NCBI RefSeq assembly: GCF_003018255.1
Contig: NZ_CP027440.1
Length of the DNA: 64,000 nt
Reading direction: 5' to 3' (one strand)
From: Escherichia coli
GTDB lineage: Bacteria > Pseudomonadota > Gammaproteobacteria > Enterobacterales > Enterobacteriaceae
Part shown: positions 1,859 to 62,425 of the stretch, piece after piece
Position numbering within the stretch: the stretch's first letter is position 1
Layout of the letters: the number at the start of each line of letters is the position of its first letter
Notes under the pieces: generated by a model
Database searches by the model: none
Seen by the model: the letters and a program-made list of their open reading frames with translations, nothing else
What the model was told of the DNA's origin: nothing
Program-made: the position numbers and the translations under genes

Positions 1859-4460
1859 AGCGCAGATTAAAAATAAACGCCGTATCTCACCTTTCTGGCT
1901 GCTGCCGTTCATCGCGCTAATGATTGCCGGTTGGCTGATTTGGGATAGTTATCAGGACCGGGGTAATACCGTCACCATCGACTTTATGTCGGCGGATGGT
2001 ATTGTCCCGGGCCGCACCCCTGTTCGTTATCAGGGCGTTGAAGTCGGAACTGTGCAGGATATCAGCCTGAGCGACGATCTTCGTAAGATTGAAGTCAAGG
2101 TCAGCATCAAGTCTGATATGAAAGATGCGCTGCGCGAAGAGACACAGTTCTGGCTGGTGACGCCAAAGGCCTCACTGGCAGGTGTCTCCGGGCTGGATGC
2201 CCTCGTCGGTGGTAACTATATCGGCATGATGCCAGGTAAAGGTAAAGAGCAGGATCACTTTGTCGCACTCGATACCCAACCGAAGTATCGGCTGGATAAT
2301 GGCGATCTGATGATCCACCTGCAAGCCCCCGATCTCGGTTCACTGAACAGCGGTTCATTGGTCTATTTCCGTAAGATCCCGGTGGGTAAAGTCTACGACT
2401 ATGCCATCAATCCCAATAAGCAAGGCGTGGTGATTGATGTCCTGATCGAGCGGCGTTTTACCGACCTGGTGAAAAAAGGTAGCCGTTTCTGGAACGTTTC
2501 CGGCGTTGATGCCAACGTCAGTATCAGTGGCGCGAAGGTGAAACTGGAAAGTCTGGCGGCACTGGTTAACGGTGCGATTGCCTTCGATTCACCTGAAGAG
2601 TCGAAACCTGCCGAGGCGGAAGATACCTTTGGTCTGTATGAAGATCTCGCCCACAGCCAGCGTGGCGTAATAATAAAACTGGAACTGCCGAGTGGGGCCG
2701 GATTAACCGCCGACTCGACGCCGTTAATGTATCAGGGGCTGGAAGTCGGACAGCTGACTAAACTGGATTTAAATCCTGGTGGTAAAGTCACCGGAGAAAT
2801 GACCGTTGATCCCAGCGTCGTTACGCTGTTACGGGAAAATACCCGCATCGAATTACGTAATCCGAAATTATCCCTTAGCGATGCCAATCTCAGCGCCCTG
2901 CTGACCGGAAAAACCTTTGAGTTGGTGCCCGGCGATGGTGAGCCACGCAAAGAGTTCGTTGTTGTGCCAGGCGAAAAAGCCCTGCTACAAGAGCCGGATG
3001 TTCTGACACTGACCCTGACAGCACCAGAAAGTTACGGTATTGATGCTGGTCAGCCGCTCATTCTCCACGGTGTGCAAGTAGGCCAGGTTATTGATCGTAA
3101 ACTCACCAGCAAAGGCGTTACCTTTACCGTCGCCATCGAGCCTCAGCATCGCGAACTGGTAAAAGGCGATAGCAAATTTGTCGTCAACAGCCGTGTCGAC
3201 GTGAAGGTGGGGCTGGATGGCGTTGAGTTTCTCGGTGCCAGCGCCTCAGAATGGATTAACGGCGGGATACGTATTCTGCCGGGCGATAAAGGCGAGATGA
3301 AAGCCAGCTATCCACTGTATGCCAATCTGGAAAAAGCGCTGGAGAACAGCCTTAGCGATTTACCCACCACAACCGTAAGTTTGAGTGCAGAGACGCTGCC
3401 GGATGTGCAGGCAGGATCGGTAGTGCTGTACCGTAAATTTGAAGTTGGTGAAGTTATTACTGTGCGTCCGCGAGCTAACGCGTTTGATATCGATCTGCAT
3501 ATTAAGCCGGAGTATCGCAACCTTCTGACCAGCAACAGCGTGTTCTGGGCAGAAGGTGGGGCGAAAGTTCAGCTAAATGGTAGTGGTCTGACCGTACAGG
3601 CATCCCCGCTCTCCAGAGCATTAAAGGGGGCTATTAGCTTCGATAACCTCAGCGGTGCCAGCGCCAGTCAGCGTAAAGGCGACAAGCGTATTCTGTATGC
3701 TTCCGAAACAGCGGCCCGTGCGGTTGGCGGGCAAATTACGCTTCACGCTTTCGATGCCGGAAAACTGGCGGTCGGGATGCCAATTCGCTATCTCGGTATT
3801 GATATCGGGCAAATCCAGACGCTGGATCTGATTACCGCGCGCAATGAAGTACAGGCAAAGGCGGTACTTTACCCGGAATATGTCCAGACCTTTGCACGCG
3901 GTGGTACACGCTTCTCAGTGGTCACACCGCAAATTTCGGCAGCTGGCGTTGAGCATCTTGATACTATCCTCCAGCCGTATATCAACGTCGAACCAGGCCG
4001 GGGCAATCCTCGGCGCGACTTTGAATTACAAGAGGCTACCATAACTGATTCGCGTTACCTGGATGGCTTAAGCATTATTGTTGAAGCGCCGGAAGCCGGT
4101 TCGTTAGGCATCGGTACGCCTGTGCTGTTCCGTGGTCTGGAAGTCGGTACGGTTACCGGAATGACGCTGGGGACATTGTCAGATCGCGTGATGATTGCGA
4201 TGCGCATCAGTAAACGCTATCAACACCTGGTGCGTAACAATTCCGTCTTCTGGTTGGCATCGGGTTACAGTCTGGACTTTGGTCTGACGGGCGGCGTAGT
4301 GAAAACCGGCACCTTTAACCAGTTTATCCGTGGCGGCATCGCCTTCGCCACGCCTCCGGGTACGCCACTGGCACCGAAAGCCCAGGAAGGCAAGCACTTC
4401 CTGTTGCAGGAAAGTGAACCGAAAGAGTGGCGTGAATGGGGAACTGCGCTTCCCAAATAA
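1827..4460 (+). CDS. letB: Multi-MCE-domain periplasm-spanning tunnel protein LetB
   Basis: 877 aa from [27 protein letters not shown] (ORF track starts 14 codons earlier). Repeated MCE-like modules and an N-terminal TM anchor; overlaps the letA 3' end by 32 nt. Matches YebT. Confidence 0.9.
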
Positions 4461-24629: not shown

Positions 24630-25952
24630 TTAATCAAACCGTAGCTGCGGCACAATCTCTTTGGCCTGCGCCAGGAATTCGCGACGATCGGAGCCGGTCA
24701 GCCCTTCGGTACGCGGCAGTTTTGCCGTCAGCGGGTTTACGGCCTGCTGGTTTATCCATACTTCATAGTGCAGATGCGGCCCGGTTGAACGTCCGGTATT
24801 ACCGGAAAGCGCGATACGGTCGCCACGTTTCACCTTCTGTCCCGGTTTCACCAGGATCTTGCGCAAGTGCATATAACGCGTGGTGTAGCTGCGACCATGA
24901 CGAATAGCCACATAATAACCTGCTGCGCCACTGCGTTTGGCAACCACCACTTCACCGTCACCCACTGAAAGCACTGGCGTACCTTGTGGCATGGCAAAAT
25001 CAACACCTCTGTGTGGCGCAACGCGACCGGTCACCGGATTAGTACGACGCGGGTTAAAGTTAGATGAGATACGGAACTGTTTCGCCGTCGGGAATCGCAA
25101 GAATCCTTTCGCCAGACCAGTACCGTTACGATCGTAGAATTTGCCATCTTCAGCGCGGATTGCGTAATAATCTTTACCTTCTGAACGCAAACGTACGCCC
25201 AGCAGCTGGCTTTGCTCACGTTTACCATCAAGCATTTCTCGTGACATTAACACCGCAAATTCATCGCCTTTTTTCAGTTTGCGGAAATCCATTTGCCACT
25301 GCATGGCTTTAATCACTGCGCTCACTTCGGCGCTGGTTAAACCGGCGTTTCTGGCGCTGGCAACAAAGCTTCCCCCGACGGTACCTTTCAGCAGATTGTT
25401 GACCCACTCTCCTTGCTGCATTTCGCTGGTCATTTTAAAACCGTTAGCGGCAGTACGGTCATAGGTTCGGGTTTCACGACGAGACACTTCCCAGGTGAGG
25501 CGCTGCAGTTCGCCGTCCGCGGTTAATGTCCAGGAGAGTTGTTGACCGATTTTCAGGTTACGCAATTCTTTGTCGGCAGCAGCCAGTTGGGTGATATCAC
25601 CCATATCAATACCATACTGATTGAGAATGCTGCTTAGCGTATCGCCAGTGGAAACAACATATTCATGCACGCCCGCTTCACCGGCGATTTTGTCATCCAG
25701 TTCATCCTGGGGAATGGCTTCATCTTCTTGTGCAGCTTGATCAATCGGCTCACTGGCTTCAGGTAAGAGCGAACGAATTTCGTTCTGTTCCAGCTCAATG
25801 GTTTTGACAATTGGCGTGGCATCGCGGTGATAAACATAGGGCCGCCAGACAGCGACGGCCAGAGTAAGAACGGTGAGCGACCCTAACATAACGCGGTGTG
25901 GTCGCGGTAAATTATTAAACGCCAGGGCGACAGAGCGGGCTATCTGTTGCAC
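24630..25952 (-). CDS. mepM: Murein DD-endopeptidase, LysM plus M23 peptidase
   Basis: 440 aa with LysM segment and C-terminal M23 zinc-peptidase motifs (HRGVDFA...HLHYEV). Matches YebA/MepM. Confidence 0.9.
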
Positions 25953-32497: not shown

Positions 32498-32941
32498 TCA
32501 GGCAGCGTTAATTACAAACTGTTCAATCGCCTGCCGGTTGCTCCAGGACTTAGTGAGCGCCGCAGCAGCAGGCGCGTCAAGCCACTTGTAAGCCAGATGT
32601 TCAGTGAAAACGATCTGGCGCTCGTGCGGGAGCGCAAGACAGAACCATGATTCCGTATTACGCGTCACGCCCGGCGCATAGCGATGACGTAAATGTGAAA
32701 AAATTTCAAACTCTACCGTGCGCTGACAGTCAATTAAGGTCAGTTGTTCAGCGACAACATCAATGGTGACCTCTTCCTTTACTTCGCGCATGGCAGCTTG
32801 CGGCGCGGTTTCACCCTCTTCCACGCTGCCGGTTACCGACTGCCAGAAATCGGGATCGTCACGCCGCTGCAACATCAGCACCCGTTTCGTATCTTGTGCG
32901 TAGATGACCACTAAGATCGAAACGGGACGCTTATAAGCCAT
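32498..32941 (-). CDS. nudB: Dihydroneopterin triphosphate pyrophosphatase (Nudix)
   Basis: 147 aa with Nudix box ([21 protein letters not shown]). Confidence 0.85.
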
Positions 32942-44254: not shown

Positions 44255-45988
44255 GTGAATATTCAGGCTCTTCTCTCAGAAAAAGTCCGTCAGGCCATGA
44301 TTGCGGCAGGCGCGCCTGCGGATTGCGAACCGCAGGTTCGTCAGTCAGCAAAAGTTCAGTTCGGCGACTATCAGGCTAACGGCATGATGGCAGTTGCTAA
44401 AAAACTGGGTATGGCACCGCGACAATTAGCAGAGCAGGTGCTGACTCATCTGGATCTTAACGGTATCGCCAGCAAAGTTGAGATCGCGGGTCCTGGCTTT
44501 ATCAACATTTTCCTTGATCCGGCATTCCTGGCTGAACATGTTCAGCAGGCGCTGGCGTCCGATCGTCTCGGTGTTGCTACGCCAGAAAAACAGACCATTG
44601 TGGTTGACTACTCTGCGCCAAACGTGGCGAAAGAGATGCACGTTGGTCACCTGCGCTCTACCATTATTGGTGACGCAGCAGTTCGTACTCTGGAGTTCCT
44701 CGGTCACAAAGTGATTCGCGCAAACCACGTCGGCGACTGGGGCACTCAGTTCGGTATGCTGATTGCATGGCTGGAAAAGCAGCAGCAGGAAAACGCTGGT
44801 GAAATGGAGCTGGCTGACCTTGAAGGTTTCTACCGCGATGCGAAAAAGCATTACGACGAAGATGAAGAGTTTGCCGAGCGTGCACGTAACTACGTGGTAA
44901 AACTGCAAAGCGGTGACGAATATTTCCGCGAGATGTGGCGCAAACTGGTCGACATCACCATGACGCAGAACCAGATCACCTACGATCGTCTCAACGTGAC
45001 GCTGACCCGTGATGACGTGATGGGTGAAAGCCTCTACAACCCAATGCTGCCGGGTATCGTGGCGGACCTGAAAGCCAAAGGTCTGGCGGTAGAAAGTGAA
45101 GGCGCGACCGTCGTATTCCTTGATGAGTTCAAAAACAAGGAAGGCGAACCGATGGGCGTGATCATTCAGAAGAAAGATGGTGGCTATCTCTACACCACCA
45201 CTGATATCGCCTGTGCGAAATATCGTTATGAAACACTGCATGCCGATCGCGTGCTGTATTACATCGACTCCCGTCAGCATCAACACCTGATGCAGGCGTG
45301 GGCTATCGTCCGTAAAGCAGGCTATGTACCGGAATCCGTACCGCTGGAACACCACATGTTCGGCATGATGCTGGGCAAAGACGGCAAACCGTTCAAAACC
45401 CGCGCGGGTGGTACAGTGAAACTGGCCGATCTGCTGGATGAAGCCCTGGAACGTGCACGCCGTCTGGTGGCAGAAAAGAACCCGGATATGCCAGCCGACG
45501 AGCTGGAAAAACTGGCTAACGCGGTTGGTATTGGTGCGGTGAAATATGCGGATCTCTCCAAAAACCGCACCACGGACTACATCTTCGACTGGGACAACAT
45601 GCTGGCGTTTGAGGGTAATACCGCGCCATACATGCAGTATGCATACACGCGTGTATTGTCCGTGTTCCGTAAAGCAGAAATTGACGAAGAGCAACTGGCT
45701 GCAGCTCCGGTTATCATCCGTGAAGATCGTGAAGCGCAACTGGCAGCTCGCCTGCTGCAGTTTGAAGAAACCCTCACCGTGGTTGCCCGTGAAGGCACGC
45801 CGCATGTAATGTGTGCTTACCTGTACGATCTGGCCGGTCTGTTCTCTGGTTTCTACGAGCACTGCCCGATCCTCAGCGCAGAAAACGAAGAAGTGCGTAA
45901 CAGCCGTCTGAAACTGGCACAACTGACGGCGAAGACGCTGAAACTGGGTCTGGATACGCTGGGTATTGAGACAGTAGAGCGTATGTAA
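44255..45988 (+). CDS. argS: Arginine--tRNA ligase
   Basis: 577 aa [21 protein letters not shown]... with the class I HVGH motif ([13 protein letters not shown]). Confidence 0.95.
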
Positions 45989-46002
45989 TCGCGTTATACG
46001 GC

Positions 46003-46036
46003 AAAAGCCGATGTCATGGCAGACATCGGCTTTTTT
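46003..46036. terminator. Bidirectional intrinsic terminator between convergent argS and flhE
   Basis: AAAAGCCGATGTCATGGCAGACATCGGCTTTTTT, a perfect hairpin flanked by A and T runs. Confidence 0.6.
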
Positions 46037-46040
46037 ATCA

Positions 46041-46433
46041 TTAACGATAATTCACAATCACTTCATTCCGTTGTACCTTTAGCGGCGGAATTAACCGCCC
46101 ACCGCCAGACACTTCCCAGATAAATCGCAACGGTTCTATCGCCGGTATACCGGAAAAGGCCACGGTGGTTCCACTCTGCCCTTCTAATTCGACACAACGA
46201 GATTGTGAACACAAGCGAACCCGCAGTCCTGCAGGTGTCGGGCCGATAAGCTGATAACGCCACGCCACCAGCGTCATCAATCCTGCAGCAGGTTGTCGAG
46301 TAGAAAGAGGCGCTGACGACATCGACTCACCACGGTGATTCAGCGTAACGCCCACACTACTCGCCTGCCACATCCCCTCCCCCGCGGCTTGCACCAGCAG
46401 CGGAAACAATAATATTGCTAATAAGGTTCTCAT
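46041..46433 (-). CDS. flhE: Flagellar protein FlhE
   Basis: 130 aa from MRTLLAILLFPLLVQA (signal peptide); its start overlaps the flhA stop. Confidence 0.85.
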   Translation of the reverse strand: MRTLLAILLFPLLVQAAGEGMWQASSVGVTLNHRGESMSSAPLSTRQPAAGLMTLVAWRYQLIGPTPAGLRVRLCSQSRCVELEGQSGTTVAFSGIPAIEPLRFIWEVSGGGRLIPPLKVQRNEVIVNYR

Positions 46434-48511
46434 CATTTACCGCCAATTGTCGCCGTCATGCGGATATGTCGGTTATCAGATAGTTCCAGATTCGACAGCA
46501 CCACTAACTGCGGCAGGCTGCGGCGCAGGAAACGAGACAATAATGGTCGCAGCGCGTGGTTCACCAACAATACAGACGGCGCACCCAACATCTCCTGACG
46601 GGATAGCGCTTCCTGAGTTTGCGCCAGCAAACGATCCGCCAGCCCTGGCTCCAGTCCGCCCCCACCCTGCAACGCCTGTAGTAACAAACGTTCCAGCGGC
46701 GTATCAAGGCCAATAACATGGACTTCATCTTTGCCAGGAAACCACTGCTGGGTAATCGCCCGTCCCAACGCCACGCGCACGACGGCGGTTAATTCATGTG
46801 GATCGCTCTGAATGGGCGCATGTTCTGCCAGCGTTTCGAGAATGGTGCGCATATCGCGAATCGGCACTTTTTCATCGAGCAGATTTTGCAGCACTTTATG
46901 CAGTGTGGTGAGCGTGACGACGCCAGGAACGAGATCTTCCGTCAGCTTTGGCATCTCCTGGGCGACGCGATCCAGCAACTGTTGCGCCTCCTGACGACCA
47001 AACAGCTCTGCGGCATGCTGGCTAATGAGGTGGTTAAGATGCGTTGCCACCACCGTGCTGGCCTCAACCACGGTGTACCCCTGAATCTGCGCCTGTTCTT
47101 TAAGCGCACTTTCAATCCAGATAGCATTCAGGCCAAACGCCGGATCGACGGTCGCCTCACCAGGTAACGTCCCGGCAGCGGTACCAGGGTTAATCGCCAA
47201 CCAACGCCCCGGATAAGCATCACCACTGCCTATCTCCACGCCTTTCATCAAAATGCGATAGCGGGCAGGTTGCAGATCCATATTGTCGCGAATGTGCACC
47301 ACCGGCGGCAGAAACCCCATCTCCTGGGCAAATTTCTTGCGAATACTGCGTATACGGCCCAGCAACTCACCATCCTGCTGGAAATCGACCATCGGGATCA
47401 GGCGATAACCCACTTCCATTCCCAGAGAATCTTCCAGTTGTACATCGTTCCACGTTGCTTCGATTACCGAATTATTCTCTGCCATTTTTACCGGTTTTGG
47501 TTCGGCAGGCGCTTTTTGTTCACGTCCGCGGATCCACCAGGCCAGTCCCAGCAATCCGGCAGTGAACAGCAAAAATACCAGGTTCGGCATTCCAGGCACC
47601 AGGCCGAGTAAACCGAGCACGGCGGCGCTTAACAACATAACGCTTGGGTTACTGAAAAGCTGATTCACCATCTGCTCGCCAACATCCTGATCGGTGCTGA
47701 CACGCGTAACGATGACCCCGGCGGCGGTAGAAATCACCAGCGCCGGAATTTGTGCCACAAGACCGTCGCCAATGGTCAATAGCGTATAACTTTCCGCCGC
47801 GTGTCCCATGCTCATGCCATGTTGCAGCACGCCGACCAGCAACCCGCCGACAACGTTAATGACCATGATGAGGATCCCGGCGATGGCATCGCCGCGGACA
47901 AACTTACTTGCCCCGTCCATTGAGCCGTAAAAATCGGCTTCCTGAGTCACTTCGGAGCGGCGTTTTTTCGCCTCATCTTCACCAATCAATCCGGCGTTAA
48001 GGTCGGCGTCAACCGCCATCTGCTTACCCGGCATACCATCGAGAACAAAGCGCGCGCCCACTTCCGCAATACGCCCGGCACCTTTGGTGATAACCATAAA
48101 GTTGATGATCACGAGAATGACGAACACCACGATACCGATAGCGAAATTGCCACCAACGAGGAAGTGACCGAACGCTTCGACCACCTTTCCAGCCGCCGCC
48201 GCGCCGGTATGCCCTTCCATCAAAATGATACGGGTTGAAGCCACATTAAGTGCCAGACGCAACAACGTGGTAAACAACAGAATCGTCGGAAACGCAGCAA
48301 ACTCAAGCGTGCGTTGGGTAAACATCGCCACCAGCAACACCATGATCGACAAGGCAATATTGAAGGTAAACAGCAGGTCGAGTATGAATGCGGGCAGTGG
48401 CAGTACCATCATCGACAAGATCAACAGGATCAAAATCGGTCCGGCAAGGATCTGCCAGTGTGTCGATTTCAGGTTTGCGGGCAGGCGCAGCATCGCGGCC
48501 AGATTACTCAT
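46433..48511 (-). CDS. flhA: Flagellar export apparatus protein FlhA
   Basis: 692 aa from MSNLAAMLRLPANLKSTHWQILAGPILILL; the ORF track has a 25-codon extension. Confidence 0.95.
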   Translation of the reverse strand: MSNLAAMLRLPANLKSTHWQILAGPILILLILSMMVLPLPAFILDLLFTFNIALSIMVLLVAMFTQRTLEFAAFPTILLFTTLLRLALNVASTRIILMEGHTGAAAAGKVVEAFGHFLVGGNFAIGIVVFVILVIINFMVITKGAGRIAEVGARFVLDGMPGKQMAVDADLNAGLIGEDEAKKRRSEVTQEADFYGSMDGASKFVRGDAIAGILIMVINVVGGLLVGVLQHGMSMGHAAESYTLLTIGDGLVAQIPALVISTAAGVIVTRVSTDQDVGEQMVNQLFSNPSVMLLSAAVLGLLGLVPGMPNLVFLLFTAGLLGLAWWIRGREQKAPAEPKPVKMAENNSVIEATWNDVQLEDSLGMEVGYRLIPMVDFQQDGELLGRIRSIRKKFAQEMGFLPPVVHIRDNMDLQPARYRILMKGVEIGSGDAYPGRWLAINPGTAAGTLPGEATVDPAFGLNAIWIESALKEQAQIQGYTVVEASTVVATHLNHLISQHAAELFGRQEAQQLLDRVAQEMPKLTEDLVPGVVTLTTLHKVLQNLLDEKVPIRDMRTILETLAEHAPIQSDPHELTAVVRVALGRAITQQWFPGKDEVHVIGLDTPLERLLLQALQGGGGLEPGLADRLLAQTQEALSRQEMLGAPSVLLVNHALRPLLSRFLRRSLPQLVVLSNLELSDNRHIRMTATIGGK

Positions 48512-61654: not shown

Positions 61655-62425
61655 CCAGAATAACCAACTTTATTTTTATGCGGTCTCACCGCACCCCGTG
61701 ATGTCGCCGGGAAGCCCCGGTAAAAAATAATTAGCATTAGAATAGTTGCGATAAGCTGCAATAGGCAGAGCCCCTTTGTGGGATTTAATAAGTCCTTACA
61801 AATAGAAGGGGTTCTTTACACTTATCTAAGATTTTTCCTAAATCGACGCAACTTTACTCGTCACTACACGCACATACAACGGAGGGGGGCTGCGATTTTC
61901 AATAATGTGTGATGCAGATCACACAAAACGCTCAATTACTTAACATAAATGTATAAGTCATACTTTTGTTTTGGGTGTATTTCAATCTGTTAAAAAGTTT
62001 TTCGCGACGCTAGCAAGCAAAAATGAAACAGGAATAATAGAAATGGGATGTTGCGCACAGTTAAAATAACTCACCGTAAATAATCATCTGCTATAAATAA
62101 TTGCTTTAATGCAATACCAGATAAGCTATTTTTAAACAGACACTTACTGCACAACAAACTAATTAAATACAAAGAAAGGCAACAATCAACTTAATGTTGA
62201 TAAAATGTTTTACATATATTAACCACTTGTTTAATATGGAGAATCAGTACATTATTTTCTTATAATTACAGTTGAAATCATATGATCACCGAGAGTGATT
62301 GATTAATTGTATTTACTAATAATCACGCTAATATTTACCTGTTTGACTGAGTTGGGATTGCGTCGTTTCTCCATTAGGAGTAAAGCTTTAATGTCACCTG
62401 AAGTTCACAGAATAAGGAACAGGTT
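61655..62425. promoter_or_regulatory. AT-rich divergent regulatory region of flhDC and uspC, with no IS insertion
   Basis: 771 bp noncoding and visibly AT-rich; flhD and uspC diverge from it. No transposase ORF or IS terminal inverted repeats are visible. Confidence 0.6.

Follow-up and report, generated by a model that had tools for sequence, protein, structure and literature searches.

The 52-bp argS–flhE junction of an Escherichia coli genome: very probably the short allele of an old two-state Escherichia polymorphism

Introduction

Bidirectional intrinsic terminators between convergent genes are a described class, pervasive in E. coli and documented by 3'-end mapping. In the genome record of E. 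coli K-12 MG1655 (NC_000913.3), argS (1960062–1961795) and flhE (1962580–1962972, minus strand) flank yecV (1961837–1961881, minus strand, 14 codons) and yecT (1961972–1962460, plus strand, 162 codons). Expression of yecT increases moderately without H-NS/StpA and strongly with BglJ–RcsB (PMC3950696). These were the only functional data retrieved by our literature search for yecT, and the search found no paper on a presence/absence polymorphism of the gene. Proteins of the DUF1311/LprI type have been reported as immunity proteins of the T6SS (PMC12135965), and Etsi4 (Z0245) of EHEC is a DUF1311/LprI T6SS immunity protein (PMC12981562).

Here, we describe the argS–flhE junction in a 64-kb stretch of E. 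coli DNA, the whole of which is called the window below. The original prediction, made from the sequence and from the K-12 gene order, had placed a single shared terminator between the two genes and had noted that yecT is missing.

Results

In the window, argS (arginine–tRNA ligase; 44255–45988, plus strand) is listed as an ORF of 577 aa with the stop codon TAA at 45986–45988, and is 100% identical to the annotated argS of strain 200164 (tblastn, 100% over 577 aa). On the minus strand it is faced by flhE, the terminal gene of flhBAE (46041–46433, 130 aa, stop codon TAA at 46041–46043), identified from its translation and from the annotation of an identical RefSeq record; the product scores 210 bits against the NCBIfam FlhE equivalog, with the cutoff at 150. 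These ORF coordinates agree with the original prediction, which had put the argS stop at 45988, the flhE stop at 46041, and 52 bp between them. The spacer (45989–46040), whose junction is also seen in other genomes, comprises 14 nt, the palindrome AAAAGCCGATGTC-ATGGCA-GACATCGGCTTTT (46003–46034), TT, and 4 nt preceding the flhE stop. The absence of yecT was also seen correctly, as a tblastn search with YecT yielded a best E-value of 7 over the 64 kb, and neither a YecT-like sequence nor a PF07007 match was found in the window. An Rfam scan of positions 45400–46700 gave no match at E ≤ 1.

The terminator scan, which called the palindrome on the plus strand only, and the RNA folds both predict that it forms the intrinsic terminator of argS. 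The predicted hairpin has 13 pairs, six of them G–C, and a 6-nt loop, with the stem beginning 14 nt beyond the argS TAA. Its G+C-rich core, GCCGATGTC/GACATCGGC (46007–46015 and 46022–46030), is a 9-bp stem, and the T6 tract at 46031–46036 on the plus strand, which passes the scan criterion, completes the terminator. The folding energies are −25.7 kcal/mol (z = −4.3) on the plus strand and −25.4 kcal/mol (z = −5.7) on the minus strand, and in both cases none of the 200 shuffles was as good. The 9-bp core stem and T6 are unchanged in five aligned short (yecT-less) alleles from three lineages, while the loop and the lead-in vary. Judged by these features, the hairpin with U6 reads as a canonical Rho-independent terminator for argS, conserved across species.

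On the minus strand, the flhE stop is followed after 6 nt by the same palindrome, and A4 at 46003–46006 becomes U4 after the hairpin in the flhE transcript, a weak tail. The scan did not call a minus-strand terminator at the hairpin: the tail, UUUUGCCG, has four U in eight, and UUUUG is below the criterion. In E2348/69 and PA45B the equivalent of A4 reads AACA, and in the divergent lineage L004 it reads AAAG, corresponding to U-tracts UGUU and CUUU, respectively. On the flhE side, the hairpin lacks the U-rich tract expected of a bidirectional terminator, and the U4 tail is not conserved among short alleles. Since U4 of the window is replaced by UGUU or CUUU in other short alleles, the terminator that selection visibly keeps appears to be one for argS, not one that is symmetrical for both genes. 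From the sequence, flhBAE transcription may plausibly end in part at the hairpin. Hence, the bidirectional terminator shared by argS and flhBAE, as originally proposed, is supported in the argS direction only.

The K-12 segment had been described as a yecT of some 160 codons with about 700 bp of extra DNA, and this was right. In MG1655, the gene has 162 codons and the spacer is 784 bp, that is, 732 bp above the 52 bp of the window; this spacing of 52 bp is not the K-12 one. The K-12-like strain used for comparison has the same layout as MG1655. The extra DNA is therefore real, but it does not constitute a simple indel. In the alignment of the two alleles, identity extends through argS to TAATCG, 3 nt past the stop codon, is then lost, and comes back at GATAATTCAC, in the last sense codons of flhE; the flhE stop codon itself is TAA in the window and TGA in K-12. 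The argS terminators, AAGCCTGATC...GATCAGGCTTTTTT in K-12 and AAAAGCCGATGTC...GACATCGGCTTTTTT in the window, have in common only a generic AAGCC...GGCTTTTTTAT frame. By this alignment, the whole spacer appears to have been replaced, the argS terminator included, with no clean insertion or deletion, and, as the entire spacer sequence differs, neither present-day allele would be derivable from the other by one insertion or deletion. It is possible that the common frame of the two terminators reflects very old orthology instead of replacement.

The window and the K-12-like strain are ~97.5% identical over the 38 kb that were compared, which lie beyond position 25612 of the window. For genes within these 38 kb, yecT is indeed the clearest gene-content difference, as had been claimed for the whole window. 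The only other differences observed there were an IS5 upstream of flhD in the K-12-like strain gb37 (L067:37199–38391), missing from the window (~61936–61943), and an intergenic segment of ~125 bp in the K-12-like strain (L067:7323–7447) without a counterpart at position 32935/32936 of the window, between nudB and aspS. The most diverged 500-bp bin in the comparison with K-12 is flhE, with 93.4% identity against ~97.5% regionally. We considered a divergence peak around the indel as a mark of a long-term linked polymorphism, and found it unconvincing, as flhE is fast-evolving in every comparison and argS adjoining the indel is 99.2% identical between the window and the K-12-like strain. The flhE gene of Escherichia sp. 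E1V33 is faintly closer to that of long-allele E. coli (93.8–94.4% versus 91.3–92.1%). We also searched the window for traces of yecT or the K-12 spacer, and 55 non-Escherichia loci for traces of either allele, with blastn-short, blastn, tblastx, and tblastn; the matches obtained were short and at chance level. The best candidate, a 16-nt hairpin-arm match in the flhB region of other genera, had an E-value of ~0.003–0.01 in a tiny database and was judged to be due to chance.

The original prediction had suggested atypical G+C content and flanking direct repeats of yecT as points to check, and these came out differently. The yecT cassette has 38.5–40.5% G+C compared to 51–57.5% in the flanks, and no direct repeats were found at the cassette ends. 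A perfect 11-nt direct repeat, GATAATTCACA, does occur in the K-12-like strain, with one copy at the stop of yecT and the other at the 3' end of flhE (L002:4161–4171 and 4290–4300). We rejected it as an insertion signature, as it brackets only the gap between yecT and flhE and as 13% of Markov-1 random sequences of the same size and composition contain such a repeat by chance. The copy at the flhE 3' end coincides with the right-hand homology breakpoint between the alleles, and the repeat is kept in MG1655, O157, and E. whittamii. The cassette contains no mobility genes. As for plasmids, yecT was found in four "plasmid" records only, two of them megabase-sized (1.4 and 4.8 Mb), and we read all four as chromosomal material rather than true carriage. 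Except for its atypical G+C content, the cassette does not look like a genomic island or a mobile element. Many Shigella flexneri records have truncated or partial yecT products (clusters P0003, P0006, P0008, and P0021–P0023), consistent with a dispensable gene.

The argS/flhE flanks are present in 5425 of the 5426 complete E. coli genomes. An 81-bp junction probe detected the short allele, at 95–100% identity, in 1781 genomes (33%), with 679 matches at ≥99% and 1102 at 95–99%. The 784-bp K-12 spacer, representing the long allele, matches 3642 of the 5426 genomes (67%) and is covered over at least 80% of its length in 3554; the two classes sum to essentially all genomes. Carriers of the short allele include E2348/69 and PA45B, while K-12, O111:H8, O103:H2, O157:H7, and O55:H7 are among the carriers of the long one, a division that we take to correspond to phylogroups B2 and A/B1/E, respectively. 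One genome (H71) has an IS1 within the long segment. The short allele is thus not private to the window genome and constitutes an ordinary strain-to-strain difference. It also follows that the 52-bp junction has practically no chance of being an artefact of assembly or sequence collapse, as 1781 complete genomes, sequenced in many laboratories and on many platforms, have it in identical or near-identical form, and the locus is without collapsible repeats.

Strain 200164 (human stool, Mali) and one other genome match the window at 100% identity, and only a handful of genomes reach 99%; the next-nearest group, at 98.3%, contains many avian isolates, e.g., APEC O78:H4. In all 60 best-matching genomes, yecT is absent under the match. 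The window flhE is only 94–95% identical to the B2-type short-allele flhE. From this value and the ~97.5% identity to the K-12-like strain, we infer that the window belongs to a lineage that is neither K-12 nor B2; the identities also suggest that it is not of the A/B1/E type. The non-K-12 origin envisaged by the original prediction is hence upheld.

A scan for FlhE with one genome per species yielded 59 loci, including those of four Escherichia lineages other than typical E. coli; neither E. fergusonii nor any genome named E. marmotae was recovered. The short allele is found in E. albertii (L006) and in L004, a divergent lineage that carries the name E. coli in its record, and the long allele in E. 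whittamii (L005; YecT 96% identical, 771-bp spacer) and Escherichia sp. E1V33 (L003; YecT 97% identical, 787-bp spacer). In E. albertii and L004, flhE has an extra Gln codon before the stop, because the allele breakpoint falls at the stop codon; with that codon counted as coding, their spacers are 52 bp. The short alleles are plainly homologous across the lineages. Between species, the long spacers are 91.8–94.5% identical and the short ones 82.7–90.9%, compared to 86–94% for the adjacent argS and flhE/flhA, and argS sequences cluster by species rather than by allele. As divergence of the spacer within each allele is about that of the flanks, the two-state dimorphism appears to be old, each allele having diverged over a time comparable to the age of the species. 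Neither the spacer and flank divergence nor the grouping of argS shows any sign of recent transfer or recent deletion.

These comparisons bear on the possibility that the strain of the window, or its immediate lineage, lost yecT and yecV from a K-12-like long allele. Such a loss would be tolerable for the cell if yecT is dispensable, and its truncated forms, frequent in Shigella flexneri, as well as the IS1 in the segment of H71 speak for that. However, 46 nt of the short spacer, including the hairpin GCCGATGTC...GACATCGGC, are peculiar to it and missing from the long allele, so that no deletion from the long allele can yield the short spacer. Moreover, the same spacer is shared with E2348/69, PA45B, and the rest of the 1781 genomes, and also with E. 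albertii, where its divergence is like that of the flanks. We consider a recent deletion very improbable; both alleles being present in several Escherichia species with flank-like divergence, the state of the window is very likely to be inherited. The choice between a genome that never acquired the segment and one that lost it, as put by the original prediction, does not concern this genome in particular, as the short state is shared with 1781 of the 5426 E. coli genomes and E. albertii; the question moves to the deep history of Escherichia.

In Citrobacter, Enterobacter, Leclercia, Kosakonia, Pseudescherichia, and other genera, the interval between argS and flhE is ~2–3.4 kb long and filled with unrelated genes. 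Intervals of this variable kind are exemplified by L007:3880–6910 and L011:3880–7390; the former contains, with labels read from the translation, a membrane transporter-like ORF of 530 aa and another ORF, of 379 aa, ending with EYLRKYF. The Salmonella interval carries the same 379-aa gene and a 623-aa ORF that, also by its translation, resembles a penicillin-binding protein (PBP2). By these gene contents, the interval seems to be a long-standing variable spot in Enterobacteriaceae. None of the 55 non-Escherichia loci has yecT at the argS–flhE site, and no remnant of the outgroup cargo was found in either Escherichia allele. As the outgroup cargo is unrelated and has left no remnants in Escherichia, the outgroups are unable to polarise or root the allele change.

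YecT matches the Pfam domain LprI (DUF1311) at 1.4e-17, and its N-terminus is signal-peptide-like, so by its sequence it is a putative periplasmic LprI/DUF1311 protein. The closest relatives found outside Escherichia/Shigella are 59–62% identical. In two of the three contigs of these relatives that were read (Logan contigs L063:2755–6380 and L062:917–6818), the gene lies inside type VI secretion clusters. Both homologues directly follow a large effector, which has a pesticin-like lysozyme domain in L063 and a CHAP domain in L062, and both are just ahead of a PAAR gene and tssM. The L063 module forms a patch of 36–44% G+C in a contig with roughly 55–63% G+C. The third homologue (L068:6001–6585) is beside flgE/flgD. 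In addition, K-12 YecT (L002:3677–4165) has a sub-threshold similarity to the NCBIfam UmoC family of flagellar biogenesis regulators (E = 5.5e-9, 36 bits with a cutoff of 120). Given the effector/immunity context of its nearest relatives, YecT may be an orphan T6SS immunity protein or a lysozyme inhibitor.

Discussion

We conclude that the argS–flhE region of Escherichia very probably has an old polymorphism with two states, of which the window has the short one: 52 bp that are essentially one Rho-independent terminator. In the short allele, a G+C-rich 9-bp core stem extended by A/T pairs and followed by U6 would end argS transcripts. On the opposite strand, the same hairpin is followed by U4 only, and flhBAE transcription would probably be stopped less efficiently. 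In the long allele of K-12 and other A/B1/E-type strains, this place would be taken by a 784-bp low-G+C cassette with its own argS terminator, yecV, and yecT.

Gain versus loss has to be read from four non-typical Escherichia lineages and from outgroups with unrelated cargo. We somewhat favour a gain of the yecT cassette by an early Escherichia lineage: horizontal acquisition is the likelier origin because the cassette is low in G+C and its nearest relatives are in T6SS effector/immunity modules of high-G+C bacteria. Both alleles would then have spread by lineage sorting or by homologous recombination via the conserved flanks. Conversely, the long allele could be ancestral to Escherichia, the short one having arisen once, early, by replacement or by deletion with remodelling of the terminator, that is, by a loss of yecT in deep time. 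An ancestral long allele agrees with the finding of yecT at exactly this place in E. whittamii and Escherichia sp. E1V33 as well as in two thirds of E. coli, and the common AAGCC...GGCTTTTTTAT frame, together with the following TGCC in E. albertii, could be diverged orthology. On the other hand, the low G+C content of the cassette, the lack of yecT at the site in 55 non-Escherichia loci, and the placement of its closest relatives in T6SS modules of unrelated bacteria all fit a gain better. We therefore regard the ancestral long allele as possible but the less likely of the two histories.

A bolder interpretation concerns the maintenance of the two states. The dimorphism could be an ancient trans-species polymorphism of an orphan T6SS immunity gene, where YecT would inhibit lysozyme-like or amidase effectors in the periplasm, fluctuating selection would come from host lysozyme or from competitors armed with a T6SS, and strains with the short allele would be specifically sensitive. 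At present we would call this improbable. In a weaker variant, YecT, like the distantly similar UmoC family, would feed into flagellar regulation and its adjacency to flhBAE would be non-accidental; this is possible, although the adjacency could be a coincidence.

Both alleles are routinely annotated in RefSeq, so the feature is already visible in public annotation and is an ordinary accessory-gene difference. The site in the window is an intact compact junction of convergent genes, common to a third of the sequenced E. coli; its value is chiefly that of a lineage marker, and it also shows once more that the K-12 gene order is not universal. Should YecT be an orphan immunity protein or an inhibitor of lysozyme, strains with and without it would be expected to differ in survival when facing T6SS attackers or lysozyme, and the existence of two clean natural alleles would make this easy to test.

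Compared with the Etsi4-type immunity proteins, YecT has the same Pfam domain, and its ~60% identical homologues directly follow T6SS effectors of the peptidoglycan-hydrolase type, whereas yecT of Escherichia is solitary beside flagellar genes, with no adjacent effector or T6SS gene. As in the class of bidirectional terminators, two convergent stop codons of the window enclose one palindromic hairpin with an A-tract on one side and a T-tract on the other, but for its putative action on flhE the hairpin has only a U4 tail, which is not conserved. The corresponding region of MG1655 (b1876–b1878, b4778) has the same order and orientation of cutC-yecM-argS ... flhE-flhA-flhB, with flanks that are ~97.5% identical, and differs in having a 784-bp spacer with yecV and yecT, unrelated to the 52-bp spacer of the window, and a different argS terminator hairpin. 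The closest counterparts are the short alleles of E2348/69, PA45B, and E. albertii: while they depart slightly from the window in the A-tract upstream and in the loop, both in its sequence and in its length (6 versus 9 nt), they have the same 52-bp architecture, the same 9-bp core stem, and the same T6.
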